Below, piece after piece: positions 57,542 through 57,787 of a stretch of DNA of 64,000 bases; position 1 is the first letter of the stretch, and every line of letters begins with the position of its first letter. The notes beneath the pieces are model-generated. The model worked only from the letters and a program-made list of their open reading frames with translations, was not told where the DNA came from and ran no database searches. Position numbers and translations under genes: made by a program. Source of the stretch: a virus (taxonomy: Duplodnaviria; Caudoviricetes); the IMG/VR virus record IMGVR_UViG_3300022876_000002. The stretch is one strand, 5' to 3'.

Positions 57542-57787
57542 GACGGTCCATTCGGGCTTTTACCGCACTTACTCATGAGCTTGCGGCTCAAGGGGGTCCG
57601 ACCGTCCGGGCGCCGAGTGCTTTCTTTACCTACCAGGGTTCCTTGATCAATGGTCCTTTGTAGGTTAATATGTTGTTCGACCTGGTAAGGGGGAAGGGAG
57701 GCTCGTTTTATCCCCCGACTTGGACCCATGCACCGTATGGACTACTGGGCGGCTCCTTTTAGTGTAGCCCGGCTGTACCCTACCGTC
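57542..57787. ncRNA. Putative multibranched structured RNA
   Basis: Nested closing helices 57542-47/57782-87 and 57553-58/57766-71 enclose several hairpins; no convincing ORF. Confidence 0.5.

Follow-up and report, generated by a model that had tools for sequence, protein, structure and literature searches.

Genomic setting of the locus

The stretch of DNA analysed here (64,000 nt, referred to as the window) carries on its minus strand an ORF of 331 amino acids (55850-56845) that matches PhuZ tubulins in tblastn at ~40% (41% for Shewanella phage FishSpeaker and 39% for RisingSun). By its sequence, this PhuZ tubulin gene marks the window as part of a phiKZ-related jumbo phage. Upstream of phuZ, a motif of ~30 nt (56911-56943, minus strand), which recurs in Aeromonas and Pseudomonas jumbo phages, contains TATATTAC, which we take to be a phiKZ-type early promoter motif. 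The tract 56846-58933 holds no credible protein gene; its only genes are tRNA-Asn(GTT) at 57457-57532 and, upstream of it, tRNA-Leu(TAA) at 58435-58520, both on the minus strand. The tract also contains a tRNA-like RNA (58115-58256, minus strand) with a canonical T-arm (58142-58126), a CCA end, and an oversized middle, which was missed by ARAGORN and Rfam. Directly upstream of tRNA-Asn lies the segment 57542-57787 (block B), which had been described as one closed, multibranched RNA domain of 246 nt.

Two modules and a hairpin in block B

Read along the minus strand, block B consists of a 134-nt module, M1 (57806-57673), a hairpin (57628-57665), and a 65-nt module, M2 (57606-57542), followed by tRNA-Asn, whose 5' end lies 9 nt after M2, exactly the gap predicted. 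Block B thus joins two separate modules and a hairpin rather than representing one domain. As expected, the minus strand does encode a structured RNA that was unlisted and lies in a tRNA-punctuated transcript, and the family proved as unrecognisable as anticipated: searching the window against Rfam gave no match over block B, even at E values up to 10. Every complementary pair named in the original prediction is present at its position, and perfect helices of at least 6 bp are more frequent in the block than in shuffled sequences (11 versus 5.4 +/- 2.2, with 0/60 shuffles as high). However, the whole block does not fold better than shuffles (z -0.08 on the minus and -0.63 on the plus strand), and its homologues retain only 57690-57790, a part that in phages D6 and HPP-Temi has nothing but a tRNA on either side. 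The true closing stem (57806-57791/57688-57673; 16 bp, probability 0.93) begins outside the proposed boundaries. RNase P cleavage at tRNA-Asn, suggested to define the domain, would set the 3' end of M2, whereas the conserved M1 ends 140 nt upstream.

A single 246-nt domain closed by an outer helix (57542-47/57782-87) and ending in a switch is extremely improbable. Three perfect 6-bp complementarities do join M2 to M1, and a lineage-specific base (57723) completes one of them. Nevertheless, the outer helix, the inner helix (57553-58/57766-71), and the alternative pairing (57545-50/57721-26) all have a pairing probability of ~0, and each clashes with conserved pairings of M1 by removing the leader, P3, or the unit-2 pseudoknot strand. 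Furthermore, M2 is absent downstream of all other M1 copies. The partner strands of these three helices are not conserved. The alternative pairing, thought to compete with the outer helix as in a switch, requires a C at 57723 that is found in this phage lineage only (all other copies have A), and it is partnerless in every other homologue. A lineage-specific switch between M2 and M1 is conceivable but finds no support. The one helix of the original prediction confirmed by covariation is GGGGGA/TCCCCC, which is stem P5 of M1; CCAT/ATGG is contradicted, and comparative support is absent for GCACT/AGTGC, TGAGC/GCTCA, and CCTAC/GTAGG. The last of these is the hairpin between M1 and M2 (minus strand, z -1.31), for which no homologue was found.

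Structure of M1

M1 is a conserved non-coding RNA built from two repeated units that are connected by two cross pseudoknots. It is the only match in the window to covariance models R1 and R2 (132 and 106 bits, respectively), and its fold has a z of -2.24. In its closing stem P1, the 5' strand (57791-57806) pairs with the 3' strand (57673-57688); such a stem, of 7-16 bp and differing sequence, occurs in 12/12 jumbo-phage copies. Within P1, a conserved leader (57777-57787) holds the unit-1 pseudoknot strand E1 (57781-57777), whose partner is the end of loop 2 (57699-57695). The leader is followed by P2 (57773-71/57734-32; 57732-57773 in total), which is 100% paired with compensatory changes and encloses P3 (57770-64/57745-39) and loop 1 (57763-57746). 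The next segment (57717-57728) comprises the unit-2 pseudoknot strand E2 (57728-24), which pairs with 57750-46 in loop 1, and a T-loop-like stretch after it. P5 (57716-11/57694-89), capped by loop 2 (57710-57695), completes the core (57689-57716).

The sequences of P3 and P5 vary freely while staying paired. All five counted pairs of P5 changed on both sides and are 100% paired, and 13/13 distinct P5 stems are fully paired compared with 10/156 when partners were swapped. For P3 the corresponding figures are 13/14 and 4/182. P3 rests on this per-sequence test because it is mis-registered by one column in the MAFFT alignments; in model R2 it is in register for some rows only, RNAalifold missed it and mixed nested with pseudoknot pairs on alignment A2, and ViennaRNA alone does not predict it in the window. 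In alignment A4, 95.2% of the cells belonging to the two pseudoknots, P2, and P5 are paired and 39 changed on both sides, a count that overstates the number of independent events because the jumbo-phage copies are related. This level of pairing was reached by 0/500 shuffles, and slid controls gave 36-50%. Across 20 sequences, 35 columns in ~105 nt are invariant.

Both hairpin loops of M1 carry an A-rich GAG-YC-RCC motif, and each is preceded by a leader ending in GGU and then AC. The shared loop motif and leader identify M1 as a tandem repeat, and 14 columns are invariant when unit 1, unit 2, and the single-unit copy are aligned. This single-unit copy (L150, 7534-7659) has just upstream a sub-threshold match to the abiF RNA (34.2 bits, cut-off 37). 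Each leader can base-pair with the last bases of a loop. Among 21 copies, pairing with the loop of the other unit is better than pairing with the own loop in 15, equal in six, and worse in none; total leader-loop pairs amount to 195/210 in the cross and 158/210 in the self arrangement. At the single variable pair, where G-C changed to A-U and G-C to U-A, the cross arrangement scores 40/42 and the self arrangement 27/42. For E1 and loop 2, this fourth pair is G-C in 10, A-U in seven, and G-U in four of the 21 copies. The pairing pattern in the aligned sequences indicates that the leader of each unit pairs with the loop of the other, giving two cross pseudoknots. As these counts include related jumbo phages, a held-out copy was sought. 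The M1 of Vibrio phage 1.210.O, found after modelling (79 bits), lies 15 nt before tRNA-Pro and fits the whole model: P1 has 11 bp, P2, P3, and P5 are intact, and the sequence offers 10/10 cross pairs as opposed to 8/10 self pairs, the diagnostic pairs now being A-U and U-A. At 57723 and 57699, both conserved elsewhere, the window copy stands apart from all others, and it may thus be a variant or weakened M1.

Other readings of the region were rejected. A 68-codon ORF overlaps M1, but the homologues carry one-base indels. An RNA on the plus strand was dismissed because all tRNA-linked copies are co-oriented with the tRNAs and because wobble pairs are G-U on the minus strand only. In GenBank, 'hypothetical proteins' overlap M1 in pEa_SNUABM_9 (L002, 3058-3312) and HPP-Temi (L004, 3024-3116) on opposite strands; these are probably mis-annotations and not real genes.

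Distribution of M1

In a blastn search of 50,697 phage records, the matches were confined to 57690-57790 and came, at ~80% identity, from Pseudomonas phages D6, Psa21, and HPP-Temi and from Erwinia phage pEa_SNUABM_9; a match in RIO-1 was discarded because it falls within a gene. In all four phages M1 is located in a tRNA array, and in D6 and HPP-Temi it alone fills the gap between tRNAs. With pattern scans and covariance models, the collection grew to 21 distinct two-unit sequences plus the single-unit copy. The 22 distinct two-unit copies now recognised belong to jumbo phages of the nucleus-forming type, small phages or prophages, and one vibriophage, at loci with 28-65% GC. Most copies reside in tRNA arrays or in c4-like RNA scaffolds, and P1 begins 1-2 nt past the tRNA CCA in 9/12 jumbo-phage copies. 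In the small phages and prophages, the neighbours encode terminase, replication, ligase, or polymerase functions. Five prophage copies lack P1, and M1 replaces one arm of a c4-like scaffold, which we take to resemble the c4/CI antisense RNAs; Rfam did not call C4 at these scaffolds. One such scaffold (L010) has four STnc100 RNAs and two tRNAs around it. In L007, an int-alpA RNA (1183-1245) follows the M1 scaffold, and in L112, downstream of 6188, a terminator and an ORF for an apparently Dps/ferritin-like protein come after M1.

Where tested, each genome has one copy of M1. No neighbouring gene is constant across the copies and no gene travels with M1, which argues against a role in cis. Searches in a phiKZ-like phage, PhiPA3, FishSpeaker, RisingSun, and T4, run with a control search, gave no match, and nothing was found in E. 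coli genomes and plasmids. Among the bacterial genomes sampled (401 by pattern and 151 by model), only the already known Xylophilus prophage carries M1. Of the pattern matches, 28/29 in genomes and 41/43 in metagenomes were due to chance. This patchy, virus-linked occurrence marks M1 as an accessory RNA that moved between unrelated phages.

A literature search with the M1 motif sequence retrieved only unrelated primers, and the available portions of the Minerva preprint and of the permutation paper do not describe M1. An automated survey of IMG/VR listed 8495 unvalidated candidate RNAs of DNA viruses (Fremin et al., 2023; PMC10690425), and M1 may be among them.

Two further closed elements were noticed near M1 copies. 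One, of ~55 nt with two small hairpins, is identical in three jumbo phages, where it adjoins M1 or a tRNA (L015 ~10380-10440, L017 ~1110-1165, and L067 ~9800-9860, minus strand). The other, of ~110 nt, is common to Psa21 (L003, 3300-3410) and L067 (~9600-9710), and part of it resembles the window at ~58055-57975.

The M2 module

M2 (minus strand; z -0.76) is a tRNA-shaped module with a 7-bp closing stem (57606-57600/57548-57542; probability 0.99), a further hairpin, and a T-arm-like one (57567-57551) whose loop has 7 nt. It has neither an anticodon arm nor an encoded CCA. Compared with a genuine tRNA, M2 offers only acceptor-like and T-arm-like stems; a cloverleaf with anticodon arm, a canonical T-loop, and a tRNA model score were not found. 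Three near-identical phage contigs contain a 160-bp stretch (L020, 1319-1500) that is absent from the window (at ~57455). It encodes tRNA-Gln together with another M2-like element, which repeats the 13-nt T-arm core of M2 and has an acceptor-like stem and CCA. In both M2 and this element, a shared closing motif ends 11-12 nt before a tRNA. Outside the lineage of the window, the searches for M2 returned chance matches only. With two paralogues and no outside homologue, M2 is best, if weakly, interpreted as an anticodon-less tRNA look-alike. The sole difference between the window and the near-identical phages within 57806-57455 is in M2 at 57597, where their base permits a longer or alternative stem.

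Possible functions of M1

A small RNA that keeps one third of its bases unchanged in phages whose hosts differ widely usually binds a ligand or acts as a catalyst, and either kind seldom yields a new class. M1 has been kept across very different hosts, within stable-RNA cassettes and independently of its neighbours, and thus most likely binds a common bacterial component in trans. Our leading, albeit tentative, proposal is that tRNA processing releases M1 as a stable RNA, which then serves as a two-site decoy for a conserved component of host defence or stress response. Concerning its expression, processing, binding, and anti-defence role, we infer the following scenario. M1 would be transcribed together with the tRNA array as a stand-alone, trans-acting phage RNA and be freed by the tRNA-processing nucleases of the host, with RNase P cutting at the 5' end of the next tRNA-like element, an endonuclease, and trimming from the 3' end until the long P1 stem is reached. 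It counts against this scenario that no tRNA directly adjoins M1 in the window, where freeing it would take extra cuts. Protected by P1 or by a c4-like scaffold, the RNA would fold into a compact pseudo-dimer. Each unit of this pseudo-dimer would consist of a short leader ending in GGU, an AC-A linker, and a hairpin with the A-rich GAG-YC-RCC loop, and the pairing of each leader with the loop of the other unit would hold the two firmly together. The invariant unpaired bases could then form two similar putative pockets for a molecule that bacteria have in common. Its most likely identity would be a factor of defence or stress response, either a small signal with two-fold symmetry or a protein dimer, and M1 would titrate it during infection. 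A more specific version, for which we see only a slim chance, portrays M1 as a two-pocket aptamer that captures a signal of bacterial immunity or stress, or the dimeric sensor of that signal, as a cassette swapped among unrelated phages, and its single-unit form as a homodimer. If true, M1 would be an RNA counterpart to the known protein sponges.

The strong conservation could also reflect catalysis, since invariant cores such as the 35 columns of M1 typify ribozymes as well. M1 might thus be a new class of small ribozyme that cleaves itself or acts on neighbouring RNA, with the A-rich loops and the T-loop-like segment as its active site. The letter-by-letter resemblance of the unit-2 segment to the SL4 loop pattern of twister-sister (PMC5660989) and the precedent of theta ribozymes beside phage tRNAs (PMC10879173) are compatible with this idea. 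However, M1 and its homologues, like the window, matched no ribozyme family at E values up to 10, and the pieces of a cut M1 would remain paired within the long closing stem or the c4-like scaffold. A duplicated site would also fit binding better than a single cut, and we consider a ribozyme unlikely, although it is the foremost rival of the decoy. The double pseudoknot and its frequent position between tRNAs might instead suggest a mechanically stable knot that protects the adjoining tRNAs in cis by blocking exonucleases or soaking up tRNA-cutting nucleases. Many copies have no tRNA nearby, though, and a simple block should not need so many invariant unpaired bases; this function is decidedly unlikely.

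A selfish or neutral passenger without benefit to the phage would account for the patchy, lateral spread of M1, but hardly for the single copy per genome where tested, the lack of an adjoining mobility gene, and the strong compensatory change, and is improbable. Finally, three copies (L118, L119, and L150) precede a ribosome-binding site and start codon by 15-40 nt, as expected of a riboswitch-like cis-regulatory leader. Most others are found between tRNAs, ahead of terminators, or pointing at convergent genes, and the genes downstream are unrelated, all of which makes a leader function very improbable. The trans-acting decoy is the function that we favour for M1.

M1 in comparison with known RNAs

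In a search of the window and the M1 homologues against Rfam 15, nothing over M1 or M2 reached the gathering threshold or appeared as a consistent sub-threshold match. Judged from its aligned copies, M1 represents a new family of RNAs, and its unusual fold is well supported. Several known RNAs share single traits with it. The c-di-AMP and FMN riboswitch aptamers also have internal two-fold pseudo-symmetry and T-loop-type modules. In contrast to these aptamers, M1 has no sequence match to them, no expression platform, and no consistent downstream gene, and its copies do not show the consistent position upstream of functionally related genes that characterises riboswitches. In the twister consensus, L4 is nested within P2 and forms pseudoknots T1 and T2. 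An identity of M1 with twister was rejected, as the AC-AAG segment lies outside the hairpin bearing GAG and Rfam gave no twister match. The prophage scaffolds of the C4 antisense, STnc100, and IsrK type look similar to those around the five prophage M1 cores. However, M1 is the cargo and not the scaffold, and the window copy has no such scaffold.

In unit 2 of M1, the T-loop-like segment G-U-R-C-A-A-G-U resembles part of twister-sister. The SL4 loop pattern of this ribozyme is G29 U30 G31 C32 A33 A34 G35 U36 C37 (PMC5660989), and the letters of unit 2 fit it if a purine or C is allowed at position 31. Unlike twister-sister, M1 lacks the closing stem P4 and the L1 internal loop with its C-A cleavage step, and it has two pseudoknots. 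This identity was rejected for M1 because the L1 loop between P1 and P2 is absent from alignment A4, and for M2 because the required order of parts is missing. Theta ribozymes, like M1, are pseudoknotted and start right after the 3' end of a phage tRNA. In these HDV-like RNAs, the G1 cleavage site is <=5 nt from the tRNA 3' end and, within a nested double pseudoknot, J4/2 opens with the catalytic C (PMC10879173). M1, however, has a long, U-rich closing stem after the tRNA instead of a P1 with the G1 cleavage site, differs in topology, and occurs in many copies without a tRNA; a theta or HDV-like identity was therefore rejected. M2 contains a CGAAUG stretch but offers no P3/P1 order to fit, and the same identity was rejected for it.

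A parallel in setting is provided by rnaC and rnaD (species 1 and 2) of phage T4, which are non-coding RNAs of 120-140 nt and unknown function in a phage tRNA cluster; M1 agrees with them in both size and location. They differ from M1 in having no twin unit, and neither sequence nor model searches matched them to it. Being short, backed by covariation, and present in cultured phages (Psa21, D6, HPP-Temi, pEa_SNUABM_9, and Vibrio phage 1.210.O), M1 is directly amenable to experiment and offers a tractable handle on an old question, the role of the non-tRNA RNAs in phage tRNA clusters.
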